From: a virus
Taxonomy: Duplodnaviria > Heunggongvirae > Uroviricota > Caudoviricetes
Virus record (IMG/VR): IMGVR_UViG_2541047595_000008
Coordinates: 1-5,974 of that record
Length of the DNA stretch: 5,974 nucleotides
Reading direction: 5' to 3' (one strand)
How positions within the stretch are numbered: position 1 is the first letter of the stretch; each line of letters opens with the position of its first letter. Shown here one piece after another: positions 1-5,974 of this stretch. Under the pieces are notes generated by a model. The model saw only the letters and a program-made list of their open reading frames with translations. It was not told where the DNA came from and ran no database searches. The translations under genes and the position numbers were made by a program.

Positions 1-411
1 GCAGCATTTTCTTCTGAAATGTATCCCAAACTGGCAAAGGTTTATCCAACGTTAAAATTACCTGATTTACGCGGTGAGTTTATCCGTGGTTGGGATGATG
101 GGCGAGGGATTGACTCTGGTCGCTCTATTTTAAGCGAGCAAGGATATGCAACGGAGGATCATGCTCACGGATTACCGTCAAAATCAACCGTAGCAACTGA
201 CCGCTCAATTAATTTCTACTTTGACGAGGCATGGGCTACTAGTGGTAATACGGGAGTTATCAGATGGGGGAACACAAGCGATGCAGGATTGCCAGCCCCT
301 AATTATGGAACTTTTAAAACATATAAACAGTCCGTAGCTAATTTAGGTACTGCTGGCTTAGAAACCCGCCCTCGTAATATTGCATTTAATTATATTGTGA
401 GGGCGGATTAA
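1..411 (+). CDS. Tail-fibre C-terminal variable domain Sv0 (5'-partial; gene continues upstream of window); probably the currently expressed variant
   Basis: Frame 1 is open from base 1 (AAFSSEMYPKLAKVYPTLKLPDLRGEFIRGWDDGRGIDSGR...) to TAA at 409..411. It carries the same conserved N-block and the same C-terminal tail (ETRPRNIAFNYIVRAD) as the minus-strand cassettes. The ORF-track start at 19 is an internal Met. Confidence 0.8.
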   Translation, partial: AAFSSEMYPKLAKVYPTLKLPDLRGEFIRGWDDGRGIDSGRSILSEQGYATEDHAHGLPSKSTVATDRSINFYFDEAWATSGNTGVIRWGNTSDAGLPAPNYGTFKTYKQSVANLGTAGLETRPRNIAFNYIVRAD

Positions 412-416
412 TTATA

Positions 417-1028
417 TCAACTGGCTGTAGAAAGTTGTTTTTCAGGCCAGTTGAGATCTGGTGCCGTGGTTAAATCCATCGCGTTCAGCTCGTCTATATA
501 ATCTAGCACGGAGTTAAGCTGCGTGGTTTCTGCCTGCGTCAACTTCCGTCCAGCCCGTAATTTCAACTGAATCAGACTAATGGAATCCATCGCAGTATCA
601 ATCAATGACTGACGTTTTGTTTCTGCTGCCTCTACAGCTGCACTATGTTGAGCCTCAGTATCAACCACCCATTTCTCTCCATCCCATTTGTCGTATGGTG
701 TTAGCGGGGCGATAGTGGTTGTATTTTCCGGATAGTCACCCAACACCGTGATTTCTTCGGGATTCCCAGTGTCAATGCTATAGACAGTTTCGCCACGATG
801 ATCTGGCACATACTCCCATGAACTTAAATCCTCTGAACGGAGAATCGCATAACCTGCTTTATGTGAGCCTGGAGCATCCAAACAAGAATTTGCCGGAATA
901 CCAACGCCAACAGCAAGATATTCAGTTGATGCAGAAATATATTCCCGATTACCACCATCATAGTTATAAACGATAATGTTTCCTGCCTGTATGGCTATAA
1001 GTTCGCTATTTAATATCGCATTATCCAT
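417..1028 (-). CDS. tfa: Tail-fibre assembly protein (Tfa / Mu-U-like chaperone), 203 aa
   Basis: The protein shows the Tfa pattern I recall from lambda Tfa and Mu/P1 U: GIPANS, DHRGETVY, PEN..T, KW.G..WV.DTEA and a C-terminal TAPDLNWP. Its ATG overlaps the stop of cassette A by 1 nt (TAATG on the minus strand). Confidence 0.85.
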   Translation of the reverse strand: MDNAILNSELIAIQAGNIIVYNYDGGNREYISASTEYLAVGVGIPANSCLDAPGSHKAGYAILRSEDLSSWEYVPDHRGETVYSIDTGNPEEITVLGDYPENTTTIAPLTPYDKWDGEKWVVDTEAQHSAAVEAAETKRQSLIDTAMDSISLIQLKLRAGRKLTQAETTQLNSVLDYIDELNAMDLTTAPDLNWPEKQLSTAS

Positions 1029-1486
1029 TATGCTGCTCTCACAATATAATTGAAGGCAATGTTACGTGGGCGGGTTTCATTCCCCCCAGATAACTCCGTT
1101 CTGTATTGACTGGTAAATTTACCATTAATCGCTCCTTCTTGGACGGCGTTATCTGTCGACAACAGACTATCCCCCCCTCTGTCATTTGGCACCAATACCG
1201 TGTTATCCCACGCGTCCCATGACCGAATATTATGATAATGACTTCCTGTTAACCACCCCTGTATGCTTAAGATGACCCTTCCCGCATCCACACCTCGCCC
1301 ATCATCCCAACCACGGATAAACTCACCGCGTAAATCCGGTAATTTATTGGTGGGATAAGCCTTTGCCAGATTTGGGTACTTTTCAGAAGAAAATGCTGCA
1401 CCATTGCATTTCAGCCACCCCGTTGGAGGTGTGGCTGAGGGCCACGGAACAGGTACACCAACGGGCAGCGCCGAGCCTTCTCCTAA
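1028..1486 (-). CDS. Silent tail-fibre C-terminal cassette A (no start codon; coupled to tfa)
   Basis: Manual translation shows the minus-strand frame open from site 1 down to TAA at 1028..1030: LGEGSALPVGVPVPWPSATPPTGWLKCNGAAFSSEKYPNLAKAYPTNKLPDLRGEFIRGWDDGRGVDAGRV...ETRPRNIAFNYIVRAA. The ORF track reports only 1028..1291 because the first usable start codon is an internal GTG. Confidence 0.75.
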   Translation of the reverse strand, partial: LGEGSALPVGVPVPWPSATPPTGWLKCNGAAFSSEKYPNLAKAYPTNKLPDLRGEFIRGWDDGRGVDAGRVILSIQGWLTGSHYHNIRSWDAWDNTVLVPNDRGGDSLLSTDNAVQEGAINGKFTSQYRTELSGGNETRPRNIAFNYIVRAA

Positions 1487-1503
1487 ACCAACGTTTCTAT
1501 GCC
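1478..1503 (-). repeat. Invertase crossover site 1 (hix/gix/cix-like, 26 bp)
   Basis: ttctcctaaacc-aa-cgtttctatgcc. Two imperfect inverted 12-bp half-sites flank a central AA dinucleotide. The aaacc-aa-cgttt core matches my recollection of hixL (AAACC-AA-GGTTT). It sits at the 5' boundary of cassette A. Confidence 0.7.
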
Positions 1504-1958
1504 GCTCTTACGATGTAATTAAATGCAATATTACGGGGGCGAGCTGATACATAAGCCCACCAGTCATATTTTTTGGCACCTTTACTGGATGCATCAAATA
1601 TCCACTTTTTGCCATTTATGGCCCCCCATTGATTAGAGGTTAAAGTGTCACCAAATCCGTATTGTGTTGAGCTGAGTGAACTGATATCCCCAGTATCATT
1701 ATCATCAAAACCGGAGACGATAGTGCCTTCCTGAAATGAAAGTATCTCTCGTCCTGCATCAATACCTCGTCCGTCATCCCAGCCACGGATAAATTCGCCC
1801 CGTAAATCCGGTAATTTATTGGTCGGATAAGCCTTTGCCAGCCTGGGGTACATTTCAGAAGAAAATGCTGCTCCGTTACATTTCAGCCAGCCCGTTGGTG
1901 GTGTGGCTGAGGGCCACGGAACGGGCACACCAACAGGCAGTGCAGAGCCTTCCCCCAA
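1497..1958 (-). CDS. Silent tail-fibre C-terminal cassette B
   Basis: 153-aa ORF. The apparent start is a TTG lying inside crossover site 2. It has the conserved N-block (GEGSALPVGVPVPWPSATPPTGWLKCNGAAFSSEMYP...KLPDLRGEFIRGWDDGRG), a unique middle and the invariant C-terminal RPRNIAFNYIVRAA. Confidence 0.75.
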   Translation of the reverse strand: MGEGSALPVGVPVPWPSATPPTGWLKCNGAAFSSEMYPRLAKAYPTNKLPDLRGEFIRGWDDGRGIDAGREILSFQEGTIVSGFDDNDTGDISSLSSTQYGFGDTLTSNQWGAINGKKWIFDASSKGAKKYDWWAYVSARPRNIAFNYIVRAA

Positions 1959-1975
1959 ACCAACGTTTTTATGTG
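1950..1975 (-). repeat. Invertase crossover site 2
   Basis: ttcccccaaacc-aa-cgtttttatgtg. The stop codon of cassette C (plus-strand tta at 1969..1971) is embedded in the outer half-site. Confidence 0.7.
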
Positions 1976-2472
1976 GCCCTTACAATGTAATTAAAAGCAA
2001 CGTTGCGGGGGCGCATTGATATCCATGCCCCGGTAAAATTATCCTCTGCCGTCCTTTGAGTGCCTGTTATGGAGTTATCTGATGATGCTGGAACATAATC
2101 GCTATTATCTCCTGCTTTAGGATTAGCAGGGTTTCCAACAGTTATAACAGAATCAGCAGTAGCATAAGCGATACCTACTTTGACATTAGTAGTCAGATCG
2201 ACACCGTAATAATCCTGCAAAGCTGTACGAATAAATGTTGCAGTCTGACCACTTAGCAATGAACGCCCTGTATCAATCCCTCTCGAATCATCCCAACCAC
2301 GGATAAACTCACCGCGTAAATCAGGTAATTTTAACGTTGGGTAAACCTTTGCCAGATTTGGGTACTTTTCAGAAGAAAATGCTGCTCCGTTACATTTCAG
2401 CCACCCCGTTGGTGGTGTGGCGGAGGGCCACGGAACAGGTACACCAACGGGCAGTGCCGAGCCTTCCCCTAA
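1969..2472 (-). CDS. Silent tail-fibre C-terminal cassette C
   Basis: Manual translation shows the frame open from site 3 to the stop at 1969: LGEGSALPVGVPVPWPSATPPTGWLKCNGAAFSSEKYPNLAKVYPTLKLPDLRGEFIRGWDDSRGIDTGRSLLSGQTATF...RPRNVAFNYIVRAT. The ORF track shows only 1969..2259 because no start codon lies upstream of the TTG at 2259. Confidence 0.75.
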   Translation of the reverse strand, partial: LGEGSALPVGVPVPWPSATPPTGWLKCNGAAFSSEKYPNLAKVYPTLKLPDLRGEFIRGWDDSRGIDTGRSLLSGQTATFIRTALQDYYGVDLTTNVKVGIAYATADSVITVGNPANPKAGDNSDYVPASSDNSITGTQRTAEDNFTGAWISMRPRNVAFNYIVRAT

Positions 2473-2489
2473 ACCAACGTTTTTATGCC
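2464..2489 (-). repeat. Invertase crossover site 3
   Basis: ttcccctaaacc-aa-cgtttttatgcc. Confidence 0.7.
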
Positions 2490-2986
2490 GCCCTTACGAT
2501 GTAATTAAATGCAACGTTGCGAGGGCGAGTTTCTGTACCTACATTTCCACTAATTTCACCATAACGTTTAACACTACGAGAGCTAATAGCTCGTAGTGAG
2601 GAAGGCACCTTATGACCGGGTTCGTCCGTTTTAACTATTCCCCCGTCACCGTATGTAGCTAGTATTCCTGGATTGACGCCTTCCCGTGCACTTCCTGCGG
2701 CGAGTCCGTCCCCTGTCCATAATTCCATATAGTGTGCATGGTCCAAAATTGTGTGTGGCTGCCAATTAAGCAAAGCGCGGCCAGCATCCACCCCGCGCCC
2801 ATCATCCCAACCGCGAATAAATTCTCCCCGTAAATCCGGTAATTTATTGGTGGGGTAGGCTTTTGCCAGTTTGGGATACATTTCAGAAGAAAATGCTGCA
2901 CCATTGCATTTCAGCCAGCCCGTTGGTGGTGTTTCTAAGGGCCACGGAACGGGCACGCCAACGGGCAGTGCAGAGCCTTCCCCCAA
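2483..2986 (-). CDS. Silent tail-fibre C-terminal cassette D
   Basis: 167-aa ORF with the conserved N-block (variant WPLETPP), a unique middle and the C-terminal ETRPRNVAFNYIVRAA. Its apparent TTG start lies in site 4. Confidence 0.75.
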   Translation of the reverse strand: MGEGSALPVGVPVPWPLETPPTGWLKCNGAAFSSEMYPKLAKAYPTNKLPDLRGEFIRGWDDGRGVDAGRALLNWQPHTILDHAHYMELWTGDGLAAGSAREGVNPGILATYGDGGIVKTDEPGHKVPSSLRAISSRSVKRYGEISGNVGTETRPRNVAFNYIVRAA

Positions 2987-3003
2987 ACCAACGTTTCTAT
3001 GCC
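2978..3003 (-). repeat. Invertase crossover site 4
   Basis: ttcccccaaacc-aa-cgtttctatgcc. Confidence 0.7.
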
Positions 3004-3428
3004 GCTCTTACGATGTAATTAAATGCAATATTACGAGGGCGAGATTCTCTCCCCCCCACCGAGTTAGTGCTATCCGATCTCTGTTGAATTACTGAGCCAG
3101 AAACATCAGCGGCTAAAAGATAATATCCACCTGTTGTATCAAATCCAGTTTGTGCCCATGTTCTTTCGAAATAATGACTATGTGATTTAAATTCATCTGT
3201 TTGAGTTGATAATAACGCGCGCCCACTATCCACTCCACGCCCATCATCCCAACCACGGATAAACTCACCGCGTAAATCCGGCAATTTATTGGTGGGGTAA
3301 GCCCTTGCCAGATTTGGGTACATTTCAGAAGAAAATGCTGCGCCGTTACATTTCAGCCACCCTGCTGGCGGTGTGGCTGAGGGCCACGGAACAGGCACAC
3401 CAACGGGCAGCGCAGAGCCTTCCCCCAA
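2997..3428 (-). CDS. Silent tail-fibre C-terminal cassette E
   Basis: 143-aa ORF with the conserved N-block (variant PPAGW), a unique middle and the C-terminal SRPRNIAFNYIVRAA. Confidence 0.75.
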   Translation of the reverse strand: MGEGSALPVGVPVPWPSATPPAGWLKCNGAAFSSEMYPNLARAYPTNKLPDLRGEFIRGWDDGRGVDSGRALLSTQTDEFKSHSHYFERTWAQTGFDTTGGYYLLAADVSGSVIQQRSDSTNSVGGRESRPRNIAFNYIVRAA

Positions 3429-3445
3429 ACCAACGTTTTTATGCC
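3420..3445 (-). repeat. Invertase crossover site 5
   Basis: ttcccccaaacc-aa-cgtttttatgcc. Confidence 0.7.
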
Positions 3446-3915
3446 GCCCTTACGATGTAATTAAATGCGATATTTCGTGGACGGGTTTCACTCCCGCCAG
3501 TATTACCAATACTCCCTCGAGAATGAAGTGTCGGTGATGGAATCAAATTCCCTCCTGTATTTGAGGCATCAAGCCCCCGTCCTTGTGTGTATGTTTTTTT
3601 GAAAATTGTCGCCAGCTCCCATTCATCTTTTGTGTCGTAACCATCATTGGCTACAACAATATGTCGGTGCTTTTCCAGCATTCCTGTCTGAATGCTCAAT
3701 AAAGCACGTCCCGCATCCACCCCGCGCCCATCATCCCAGCCGCGAATAAATTCTCCCCGTAAATCCGGTAATTTATTGGTGGGATAAGCCTTTGCCAGCC
3801 TGGGGTACATTTCAGAAGAAAATGCTGCTCCGTTGCATTTTAGCCAGCCTGTTGGCGGAGTGGCTGAGGGCCACGGAACAGGTACGCCAACAGGCAATGC
3901 AGAGCCTTCCCCCAA
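3439..3915 (-). CDS. Silent tail-fibre C-terminal cassette F
   Basis: 158-aa ORF with the conserved N-block, a unique middle and the C-terminal ETRPRNIAFNYIVRAA. Confidence 0.75.
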   Translation of the reverse strand: MGEGSALPVGVPVPWPSATPPTGWLKCNGAAFSSEMYPRLAKAYPTNKLPDLRGEFIRGWDDGRGVDAGRALLSIQTGMLEKHRHIVVANDGYDTKDEWELATIFKKTYTQGRGLDASNTGGNLIPSPTLHSRGSIGNTGGSETRPRNIAFNYIVRAA

Positions 3916-3932
3916 ACCAACGTTTTTATGCC
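3907..3932 (-). repeat. Invertase crossover site 6
   Basis: ttcccccaaacc-aa-cgtttttatgcc, identical to sites 5 and 7. Confidence 0.7.
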
Positions 3933-4393
3933 GCCCTTACGATATAATTAAACGCAATATTACGGGGGCGGGTTTCAGATGCTGTACGAACTGAGCGAGA
4001 GGCGTCGAATGTCCAGTTATAAGCGCCATAACCCTCAATAATTTCCGTTTCCTTTAGGCCTGTAGATAATACTTGACCATGTTGACTAAATGGCCCTGAA
4101 CTAAGTACATCTCTAAAAAGCTGAGTACGCCCGAAAGAACCAACAATATTCTGAATTGCATCATTCTGTGCAGATAATAAATTACGGCCAGAGTCAATCC
4201 CCCGCCCGTCATCCCAGCCGCGAATAAATTCGCCCCGTAGATCCGGCAATTTATTAGTGGGGTAAACCTTTGCCAGATTTGGGTACTTTTCAGAAGAAAA
4301 TGCTGCTCCGTTACATTTCAGCCACCCCGTTGGTGGTGTGGCGGAGGGCCATGGAACAGGTACACCAACGGGCAGTGCCGAGCCTTCCCCCAA
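3926..4393 (-). CDS. Silent tail-fibre C-terminal cassette G
   Basis: 155-aa ORF with the conserved N-block, a unique middle and the C-terminal ETRPRNIAFNYIVRAA. Confidence 0.75.
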   Translation of the reverse strand: MGEGSALPVGVPVPWPSATPPTGWLKCNGAAFSSEKYPNLAKVYPTNKLPDLRGEFIRGWDDGRGIDSGRNLLSAQNDAIQNIVGSFGRTQLFRDVLSSGPFSQHGQVLSTGLKETEIIEGYGAYNWTFDASRSVRTASETRPRNIAFNYIVRAA

Positions 4394-4410
4394 ACCAACG
4401 TTTTTATGCC
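4385..4410 (-). repeat. Invertase crossover site 7
   Basis: ttcccccaaacc-aa-cgtttttatgcc. Confidence 0.7.
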
Positions 4411-4832
4411 GCCCTTACGATGTAATTAAATGCGATATTTCGCGGCCTGACAGCAACAAAATTTATACCATCACCTACAGAGTTACTGGTGAAATTAAAT
4501 CGTGAAAATCCTGGCTGATTTCCGACGATGCCATCATGAAAATTAATTGCGTGCCCCGCACCATCGCCTATATTTCCGGCACGCTGAGAAAAGTTTGTAG
4601 CCTCTTGGCTGCTTAATAATGCTCGCCCATTGTCCACACCTCGTCCATCATCCCAACCTCGAATAAATTCGCCCCGTAGATCCGGCAATTTATTGGTGGG
4701 GTAAACCTTTGCCAGATTTGGGTACTTTTCAGAAGAAAATGCTGCTCCGTTACATTTCAGCCACCCCGTTGGTGGTGTGGCGGAGGGCCATGGAACAGGT
4801 ACACCAACGGGCAGCGCCGAGCCTTCCCCTAA
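4404..4832 (-). CDS. Silent tail-fibre C-terminal cassette H (outermost, next to the invertase)
   Basis: Manual translation from site 8 is open: LGEGSALPVGVPVPWPSATPPTGWLKCNGA... continuing in the same frame into ORF 4404..4688 (LPDLRGEFIRGWDDGRGVDNGR...VRPRNIAFNYIVRAA). The ORF track is shorter because the first start-capable codon is the TTG at 4686..4688. Confidence 0.7.
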   Translation of the reverse strand, partial: LGEGSALPVGVPVPWPSATPPTGWLKCNGAAFSSEKYPNLAKVYPTNKLPDLRGEFIRGWDDGRGVDNGRALLSSQEATNFSQRAGNIGDGAGHAINFHDGIVGNQPGFSRFNFTSNSVGDGINFVAVRPRNIAFNYIVRAA

Positions 4833-4849
4833 ACCAACGTTTTAGTCTT
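4824..4849 (-). repeat. Invertase crossover site 8 (array boundary site)
   Basis: ttcccctaaacc-aa-cgttttagtctt. The inner half-site and core match the other seven. The outer half-site diverges, with no preceding cassette and no embedded stop codon, as expected for the edge of the invertible region. Confidence 0.65.
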
Positions 4850-4886
4850 AATCCCTACCTATACCAACGATGTATTTTTAACTAAA

Positions 4887-4893
4887 CAAAGAG
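4887..4893 (+). promoter_or_regulatory. Ribosome-binding site of the invertase gene
   Basis: aaagagg lies 10 nt upstream of the ATG at 4904. Confidence 0.5.
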
Positions 4894-4903
4894 GTTGTTT
4901 TTC

Positions 4904-5476
4904 ATGCAAATTGGCTACATTCGTGTGTCAACAAATGACCAAAACACAGATTTACAAAGAAATGCACTGAACTGCGCAGGATGTGAACTGATTTTTGAAG
5001 ATAAAATAAGCGGAACAAAGTCAGCCAGACCAGGCTTGAAAAAGCTGCTCAGAACGTTATCAGAAGGAGATACGCTGGTTGTCTGGAAGCTGGATAGGCT
5101 TGGCAGAAGTATGAAACACCTTATCACGCTTATAGAGGAGTTGCGGGAAAAAGGTGTTAATTTCCGTAGTCTGACAGACAGTATTGACACATCAACACCC
5201 ATGGGGCGTTTCTTTTTTCATGTCATGGGTGCTTTAGCAGAAATGGAACGTGAATTAATTGTTGAGAGAACACTGGCCGGACTGGCAGCTGCACGCGAAC
5301 AGGGACGCATTGGCGGACGTCGCCCGAAGTTGACAAAAGAACAACATGAGCAAATAGCGAGGTTGATCGAAAATGGCTACAGCAGGAAACAGTTGGCAAT
5401 TATTTACGATATCGGTGTATCGACGATTTATCGTTATCATCCTGTAGAGAAGCGCCAAACTCAATCTGAGCTGTAA
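4904..5476 (+). CDS. Serine DNA invertase of the Gin/Cin/Hin/Pin/Min family (190 aa)
   Basis: MQIGYIRVSTNDQNTDLQRNAL...TLVVWKLDRLGRSMKHL...SLTDSIDTS.PMGRFFFHVMGALAEMERELI.ERT.AGLAAAR..GRIGGR is close to colinear with Gin and Cin as I recall them. The catalytic Ser is at position 9 and there is a C-terminal HTH (GVSTIYRY). The true start is the ATG at 4904; the ORF-track start is an upstream TTG at 4895. Stop is TAA at 5474..5476. Confidence 0.95.
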   Translation: MQIGYIRVSTNDQNTDLQRNALNCAGCELIFEDKISGTKSARPGLKKLLRTLSEGDTLVVWKLDRLGRSMKHLITLIEELREKGVNFRSLTDSIDTSTPMGRFFFHVMGALAEMERELIVERTLAGLAAAREQGRIGGRRPKLTKEQHEQIARLIENGYSRKQLAIIYDIGVSTIYRYHPVEKRQTQSEL

Positions 5477-5596
5477 TTCTAATGCCGCGTCGGTGTAATT
5501 TATCATGATAGAATAGGTACATTTATCGCGCGGCACATCAATTCGATGTATCTAGCGCCTGCTGACCGCTAATGAAAACTGTTCTCGAAATGTTGT

Positions 5597-5615
5597 CCCT
5601 AGTCCGAGACTAGGG
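5597..5615. other. Perfect 8-bp inverted repeat with a 3-nt loop (ccctagtc-cga-gactaggg)
   Basis: Seen directly in the sequence. No T-tract follows, so it is not a classical intrinsic terminator. It could be a protein-binding palindrome or an RNA hairpin. Confidence 0.25.
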
Positions 5616-5884
5616 TATCACCTCTGGAAAGCATACGCAGAACCTTTTTTAACCCAGGGTGCCCAGCCTTTTTGCTGCTCGCCTTATTCGCAAAAATTAG
5701 CTCACATCCTGCGCTTTCAAGTGCTTTTCACTGCATAGCTGTGTTTTGTTCATTTGTCTATATGCGTACATAGCCTATTAGCATATTTTTTGCCCACTAT
5801 CGTTATTTATTGCAAGCCACAGGTTTTAATTAACAAAACCAGTGTGTGTGGAAATCACAAAGTGCATACCGTTCTCAAATGTTG

Positions 5885-5974
5885 GGCTTTGTTGAATAAA
5901 TCGAACTTTTGCTGAGTTGAAGGATCAGATCACGCATCTTCCCGACAACGCAGACCGTTCCGTGGCAAAGCAAA
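5885..5974. mobile_element. Terminus of an IS903-group (IS5-family) insertion sequence; element continues beyond the window
   Basis: ggctttgttgaataaatc at 5885..5902 matches my recollection of the 18-bp IS903 terminal inverted repeat. The following ~70 bp (gaacttttgctgagttgaaggatcagatcacgcatcttcccgacaacgcagaccgttccgtggcaaagcaaa) matches the IS903 remnant I remember flanking the Tn903 kanamycin cassette in common vectors. This is from memory, not from a search. Confidence 0.6.

Follow-up and report, generated by a model that had tools for sequence, protein, structure and literature searches.

Cassettes resembling split collar domains in a probable Min-type tail-fibre switch with a single tfa gene

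The DNA analysed here is a stretch of 5,974 nucleotides, called the window below, from the IMG/VR virus record IMGVR_UViG_2541047595_000008 (Caudoviricetes; positions 1 to 5,974 of the record). It contains a putative tail-fibre switch: a stack of eight complete fibre cassettes on the minus strand (B to I), the 3' part of a ninth on the plus strand (A), a single tail-fibre assembly gene (tfa) and one gene for a serine DNA invertase. Coordinates are given in Table 1. The ATG of tfa overlaps the TAA of cassette B (TAATG), and tfa is convergent with cassette A. The flanks are P1-like.

All the cassettes are built on one plan. An N-block of 71 amino acids (aa), GLGEGS…D.GR, is nearly identical in B to I, and its last 35 residues are visible in A. 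A middle of 58-83 aa (the head) follows, and the tail RPRN(I/V)AFNYIVRA(A/T/D) stands directly before the stop codon in nine of nine cassettes; C and F use TAG as this stop and the other seven use TAA. An initial annotation, made from the DNA letters alone, had described just such a near-identical opening of about 70 aa and a common ending in all nine variants, and both descriptions are borne out. It had also called the middles completely unrelated. No significant similarity was found among them (best pairwise BLASTP E = 0.001 in a database of the nine sequences), and they share isolated 4-mers only. That they are rearranged copies of one another, one of the findings named beforehand as refuting the cassette design, is ruled out, there being no alignable similarity and no longer common k-mers. 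"Completely" was nevertheless slightly too strong: an HxH motif lies some 10-13 residues past the N-block in five heads (A, B, E, F and G; positions 2731-2739 in E), and heads C and H have the motif FDAS in common. The HxH placement is that of the first metal-binding HxH of T4 gp37, and cassette E has a further weak match to gp37 (HAHYMELWTGDG against HSHYIEAWNGTG). Heads C, D, H and I have no HxH, and at least two structural classes of head must therefore sit on one collar.

The term collar is used here for the following reason. The Pfam Collar model (PF07484) matches the N-block with E ~7e-15, scoring 55 bits against a cut-off of 24 for cassettes C, E and H. With phmmer, the N-block aligns to chain positions 27-93 of structure 2XGF, which are residues 811-877 of T4 gp37 (E = 1.7e-17), and the tail aligns to chain positions 229-242, residues 1013-1026, which are the last 14 residues of gp37 (NIAFNYIVRLA). 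The same two blocks match T4 gp12 (1OCY, 11-77 and 178-195, ETRPWNISLNYIIK). In gp37 the collar domain D10 consists of residues 811-881 plus 1010-1026 and has the gp12 collar fold, and the receptor-binding domain D11 is inserted into it (PMC6957217); in fibre tips of this sort the chain doubles back to the collar (PMC12609058). Judged by this homology, N-block and tail make up, as its halves, a single known collar domain with a receptor-binding insert between them, a point missed by the initial annotation, which treated them as separate features (PF07484; PMC6957217).

By likeness to the collar family, the cassettes are expected to assemble as intertwined homotrimers. The 71-aa N-block and the 14-aa tail would form a single trimeric fold, as in D10 of gp37 and in gp12, and the variable middle would be the receptor-binding domain inserted in that collar; five heads out of nine have HxH motifs that resemble those binding metal in gp37 and gp12. 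The tail would be invariant since it closes the collar beside the N-block, and it would bring the three C-termini of the trimer to the presumed starting point of fibre folding. Such a split fold would therefore explain why both blocks are invariant without invoking Tfa. Two pieces of literature were set aside. The φTE short fibre structures 9CUY and 9MJN were considered as a full-length template; only residues 3-92 are modelled in them (PMC11972413), so this fibre is of use just as a relative in sequence. The "collar domain" of the Ur-λ paper is an N-terminal attachment ring and a different thing.

Each minus-strand cassette has one 26-bp site at its 5' end, with the plus-strand consensus TTCCCCCAAACC AA CGTTTTTATGCC. 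These sites were compared with cixL and cixR of P1 and with gix of Mu. Their half-sites, GGTTT(A/G)GG(A/G)GAA, match P1 cix at 9-11 of 12 positions, the core is TT, and they resemble both cix and gix. All eight have the same orientation; the oppositely oriented partner is seen in relatives such as locus L087 and would lie beyond the window here. The invertase (Pfam Resolvase, E = 2e-51; HTH_7, E = 3e-15) has an N-terminal catalytic Ser and a C-terminal helix-turn-helix, and is 72.6% identical to P1 Cin and 70.5% identical to Mu Gin. A 72-bp stretch in the 5' part of its gene corresponds in position to the annotated enhancer of P1 and is a candidate Fis-dependent recombinational enhancer. As with Mu gin, transcription of the invertase gene leads away from the invertible DNA, the 5' end of the gene lying 54 bp from the outermost site; in P1, by contrast, it is the 3' end of cin that abuts cixL (L094).

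Related loci supply the rest of the picture. The survey covered 161 cassettes in 93 loci and was later extended to 194 cassettes in 99 loci; the heads of the surveyed cassettes fall into 16 clusters. L087 has the layout of the window: an invertase, seven co-oriented cassettes, tfa, and an S gene of 516 aa that runs in the opposite direction, tail-to-tail with tfa. Its fusion junction reads …SVLDYL|GLGEGS… over the site TTCTTGATTACC TT GGTTTAGGGGAA. Since the layout is the same and positions 1-411 of the window are 98.5% identical to the 3' end of this expressed S gene, cassette A is probably the expressed copy, joined to a constant fibre part upstream of the window. In the 99 loci 114 sites are closed and 88 fusions are open, almost every locus having just one of the latter, and L099 and L101 are isomers in which a [cassette-tfa / cassette] block is inverted. 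Because of the invertase, the cix/gix-like sites, the L087 layout, the single open fusion per locus and the isomers, we consider it highly probable that the region is the invertible part of a multiple-inversion switch of the Min/Cin/Gin type in the tail-fibre gene of a P1/p15B-like phage-plasmid, its cassettes being split collar domains. In such a switch the serine invertase would recombine any oppositely oriented site with the one found where the constant part ends; this would join one of nine promoterless, start-less 3' cassettes to the fibre gene and so change the receptor-binding tip.

The best database relatives of the window are P1-like plasmids of about 95 kb from E. coli and Klebsiella, in which the array comes after the tail-fibre genes R and S and the invertase is followed by lydA/B and darA. 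One close relative is pMCR_SCKP-LL83 (H27), reported to have a region that shares 99% identity with min, the multiple inversion region of p15B (PMC5786510). At most 74% of the window is covered by any one database record, so that its set and order of cassettes differ from those of p15B. P1-like arrays in public assemblies are likewise found as isomers, with 2-8 cassettes on either side of tfa. Nine variants are present in the window (A included) and in L103, and eight in L087 and L102; P2-like prophages have the same tfa with two to four cassettes. Single cassettes recur as well: the protein of cassette C is found unchanged in P2-like prophage arrays, and proteins 98% identical to cassette E are in the databases. 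The same cassettes, tfa and invertase occur both in chromosomal P2-like prophages and in P1-like plasmids (L098-L101, L085, L088, L091), so that the switch module as a whole moves from one phage backbone to another, unrelated one.

Table 1. Features of the window (positions in nucleotides; tail, the conserved C-terminal block of a cassette)
Feature	Position	Strand	Remarks
Cassette A (3' 136 codons + stop)	1-411	+	Cut by window start; tail 367-408, ends RAD
tfa (tail-fibre assembly gene, 203 aa)	417-1028	-	Pfam Caudo_TAP E = 3e-30; Caudo_TAP_N precomputed
Cassette B (HxH head)	1028-1489	-	Coupled translationally to tfa; tail 1031-1072, GTG-AGA, no TAA
Cassette C (FDAS-type head)	1497-1961	-	Tail 1500-1541
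Cassette D	1969-2475	-	Tail 1972-2013, ends RAT
Cassette E (HxH head, weak gp37-tip similarity)	2483-2989	-	Tail 2486-2527
Cassette F (HxH head)	2997-3431	-	Tail 3000-3041
Cassette G (HxH head)	3439-3918	-	Tail 3442-3483
Cassette H (FDAS-type head)	3926-4396	-	Tail 3929-3970
Cassette I	4404-4835	-	Tail 4407-4448; nearest invertase
Eight cix/mix-like 26-bp crossover sites	1478-1503, 1950-1975, 2464-2489, 2978-3003, 3420-3445, 3907-3932, 4385-4410, 4824-4849		Same orientation
In-frame TAA closers in GTA-AGR codons of preceding tails	1508-1510, 1980-1982, 2494-2496, 3008-3010, 3450-3452, 3937-3939, 4415-4417	-	
In-frame TAA closer in invertase-side flank (cassette I)	4842-4844	-	
Serine DNA invertase (190 aa)	4904-5476	+	Pfam Resolvase + HTH_7; catalytic Ser9 in YIRVSTNDQ
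Enhancer-like stretch in invertase gene	4922-4993	+	81% identity to P1 annotated enhancer
Dead 5' fragment of P1-type cin gene	5608-5784	-	MLIGYVRI*TNEQNTAMQ*…; stop in place of catalytic Ser codon
End of IS903B-like (IS5 family) insertion sequence	5884-5974	.	Not a part of the switch
Antisense frames, 51 aa	1363-1518, 1835-1990, 2863-3018, 3305-3460, 3792-3947, 4270-4425	+	
Antisense frames, longer	2337-2504 (55 aa), 4709-4885 (58 aa)	+	

How are the silent cassettes kept silent? According to the initial annotation they lack a start codon at the 5' end, their frame is closed by a TAA just upstream of the site, and the preceding cassette ends in a different frame. The last two statements hold throughout: the closing TAA is present for B to I, seven codons upstream of the first cassette codon in B to H and three codons upstream in I, and the preceding cassette ends in another frame. 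The first holds for ATG and GTG, of which there are none between the TAA and the N-block, but five of the eight cassettes have TTG as their second codon, with no Shine-Dalgarno sequence ahead of it. Across the 99 loci the frame is closed in 114 of 114 silent cassettes, as against 26 of 114 in a control frame, and 113 of the 114 lack any start codon from the stop to the crossover. Were the TAA absent, the frames would extend 22-46 codons into the upstream head and expose ATG and GTG codons.

The closing TAA is built from the Val-Arg codons (GTA-AGR) of the preceding cassette's tail. Valine is encoded by GTA in 59 of 59 site-linked tails and in 4 of 102 others, the remaining 98 of which have GTG, and a Fisher test on distinct DNA versions gave p = 6e-12 for this association. 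With the stop placed in an invariant tail, closure would be independent of the head of the neighbouring cassette, and we infer that downstream silent cassettes would stay closed after any rearrangement. A likely benefit is that free collar-head fragments, which could join fibre trimers and spoil them, are avoided.

Arrays have a single tfa (the window, L085, L087, L099 and L101), coupled to one cassette and convergent with another. The coupled cassette is B in the window and one with an E-type head in some P2-like prophages. In the window protein, Caudo_TAP covers residues 78-197, and the protein is 37% identical to λ Tfa over 186 aa; the N-domains are 36% identical over 64 aa (E = 8e-11). A search against the PDB gave no match to Tfa at E <= 1. 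As a tail-fibre assembly protein (λ Tfa / Mu U type), it would bind the fibre physically and be needed for its trimerisation. Seventy-nine of the surveyed cassettes directly precede a tfa. Their heads belong to 13 unrelated clusters, and all 79 Tfa N-domains belong to one family, with a mean identity of 74% between pairs that have different heads. At thresholds up to 80% identity, the clusters of Tfa N-domains and of heads are not associated, with an adjusted mutual information of ~0.05. In λ, Stf carries the collar block and ends …NIAFNYIVRLA. The N-domain of the window Tfa is unrelated to those of P2 G, P1 U/U' and Mu U/U', and the fibres of these phages have neither collar nor tail. Moreover, the identical cassette C resides with two Tfa types whose N-domains share only 57% identity. 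Because one N-domain family spans 13 types of head, because λ-type fibres share the collar and because cassette C is found with two Tfa types, we infer that the fibre-binding N-domain of Tfa may recognise the constant collar module rather than the head, which would let one tfa accompany many heads. In T4, the gp37 tip and gp38 are described as derived from the λ stf/tfa module (PMC3157838).

Could the constant parts of the cassettes owe their constancy to DNA instead? The conserved blocks might be kept by an extended recombination site or by gene conversion between cassettes, the protein itself being unconstrained. In the seven tails that abut a site, the last seven codons are indeed near-invariant as DNA, and the outer half of the site spans the last codon and the stop of each of these seven, which precede a cassette; to that extent the claim of the initial annotation that the tail is no part of any recombination site needs amending. 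This explanation is nonetheless highly improbable. DNA identity over the N-block and tail is just 83-87% (87% for the N-block), and the differences are mostly synonymous: in the N-block pairs differ on average by synonymous changes in 20.2 codons and by nonsynonymous changes in 4.5, and in the tail by synonymous changes in 5.8 of 14 codons and nonsynonymous changes in 0.8. Tails A and B, which have no adjoining site, keep a peptide of identical pattern, and so do the fibres of T4 and λ, which have no inversion system. Conservation of the tail as DNA is ruled out by the dominance of synonymous changes, and because of these changes and the retention of the peptide in A and B, the constraint on both blocks is one on protein, as had been presumed for the tail. 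A related possibility concerns the TAA alone: GTAAGG may simply have hitch-hiked as part of an ancestral duplicated unit (tail end, site and N-block), with no selection for silencing. All site-linked tails may stem from one such unit, and the counts above lack phylogenetic independence. We regard this as unlikely, though a good deal less so than the DNA-level explanation of the blocks. The A of GTA is constant in all 59 site-linked tails, although synonymous positions next to it vary and so does the stop codon; within single head types (G, H, E and F) the choice between GTA and GTG follows the context; and three different flank sequences achieve closure, those on the invertase side being two unrelated ones, AAGACTAAAACG and AAGACGAAAACG.

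As to Tfa, the suggestion in the initial annotation was that the tail itself is the docking peptide, invariant for that reason, so that one Tfa serves all nine variants through it. The single tfa in arrays of up to nine cassettes fits this, as does the constancy of the Tfa N-domain family over 13 head types in company with collar- and tail-bearing fibres, λ Stf among them. So too does the statement, in the part of PMC9608196 that summarises North et al. 2019, that it is the C-terminal or distal region of a fibre to which the Tfa N-domain binds. But the tail is equally conserved in T4 gp12, which requires gp57A only (PMC3004832), and it is found internally in the φTE short fibre (residues 292-303 of 554). 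In gp37 it belongs to the collar fold (PMC6957217), and as a target it is therefore inseparable from the N-block; tail and remaining collar cannot be told apart as the Tfa contact. The genetics of the arrays also tell against one Tfa serving all variants through the tail. The start of tfa overlaps the stop of cassette B alone, and tfa is antisense to the fibre operon whenever cassette A is the expressed tip. Scans for σ70 promoters that might drive tfa separately, and for terminators, gave fewer sites than shuffled controls, and the late-promoter pattern of P1, AAGTTACTT-N4-TAnnAT, had no match with up to two mismatches allowed. Finally, Tfa subtype goes with the coupled head. Docking through the tail as such is thus doubtful, more so than the hitch-hiking of the TAA; what survives of the suggestion is that the type of Tfa N-domain follows the collar module and not the head.

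If the collar is preferred as the surface seen by Tfa, and the TAA as a device for silencing, the following picture is possible, and we offer it tentatively, as a shade more plausible than a hitch-hiking TAA. The constant collar would be a universal adaptor, at once the nucleus of trimerisation and the surface read by the single Tfa, so that unrelated inserts could be swapped without a cognate chaperone. Leaky production of free collar-head fragments would then poison the expressed fibre, hence a TAA hard-wired in the tail and in the invertase-side flank.

Several points weigh against parts of the main reading, the switch with split-collar cassettes and the inferences on Tfa and the TAA. The TAA counts are not phylogenetically independent. 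At a threshold of 90% identity the adjusted mutual information rises to 0.66, that is, Tfa subtypes track heads, and within arrays the subtype follows the head to which it is coupled. The association of Tfa with the collar is correlative, and co-inheritance of tip and tfa as one module could produce it equally well. Inversion of this element is presumed from isomeric public assemblies. The constant fibre part and its crossover site lie outside the window, and the expression of cassette A is deduced from L087. Lastly, an AlphaFold2 model of the cassette E monomer, from an alignment of 16 sequences, was unusable (predicted local distance difference test 36, predicted template-modelling score 0.22). 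Such low confidence is to be expected for an intertwined trimer; the collar assignment draws on homology and on published structures.

The closest known counterpart is the Min multiple DNA-inversion region of p15B, reportedly described by Sandmeier, Iida and Arber in 1990-92 and said to have six crossover sites. Like the window it has a P1-like backbone with R, S, lydA/B and darA as neighbours, and an invertase beside stacked alternative fibre 3' ends, with several sites and one tfa. The window differs in having at least nine cassettes (eight sites plus the site of the constant part). The C segment of P1 with Cin and the G segment of Mu with Gin employ the same recombinase family and 26-bp sites with a 2-bp core, and join a constant fibre part to alternative 3' parts, as would the window; the enhancer-like stretch of the window would correspond to the enhancer inside their recombinase genes. 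They offer two alternatives and have a separate Tfa for each (U and U'), whereas the window has nine alternatives and one tfa; their fibres end in …INGxWYNV… with no collar or tail, while the tips in the window are of the collar type. T4 gp37 (2XGF), λ Stf and gp12 share the N-terminal block, the extreme C-terminal strand of the collar, the inserted receptor-binding domain and HxH. Instead of forming one long six-stranded needle, the inserts in the window are short, of 58-83 aa, come in at least nine unrelated types and form a switchable library. An analogous arrangement is the shufflon of R64, in which multiple inversions by Rci put alternative C-terminal ends on one constant gene, pilV, for a pilus adhesin; it uses a tyrosine recombinase and is not homologous.

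What is presented is thus a careful account of an already known kind of system. The frame-closing stop and the association of Tfa with the collar are modest additions, and current understanding is not overturned. The arrays are natural libraries of receptor-binding tips on one scaffold. They occur on widespread P1-like plasmids and in P2-like prophages of E. coli, Klebsiella and Salmonella, and some of these elements bear resistance genes as well. An insert in a split collar, together with a chaperone family that tracks the collar, leads to a rule for engineering the host range of phages and tailocins: retain the N-block and tail, and exchange the middle. A further, small design rule, on how to hold cassettes silent, comes from the conserved frame-closing stop.

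Downstream of the active invertase lies a dead fragment of a P1-type cin gene, which retains P1-like upstream DNA and the enhancer-equivalent stretch. This suggests that the Min array and its invertase replaced an ancestral Cin/C-segment. According to the GenBank annotation of P1, p15B shows this homology too, and likewise has a dead cin fragment beyond its invertase. The window closes with the terminus of an IS903B-like insertion sequence, which accounts for thousands of matches in plasmids and chromosomes at >= 96% identity.

Opposite the cassettes, the plus strand has antisense open frames, one per cassette, with a TTG start (MPDLGTFQKKML…NQRFYAALTM), that span the N-block and the site. They are most likely a by-product of the conserved, stop-poor N-block rather than genes.

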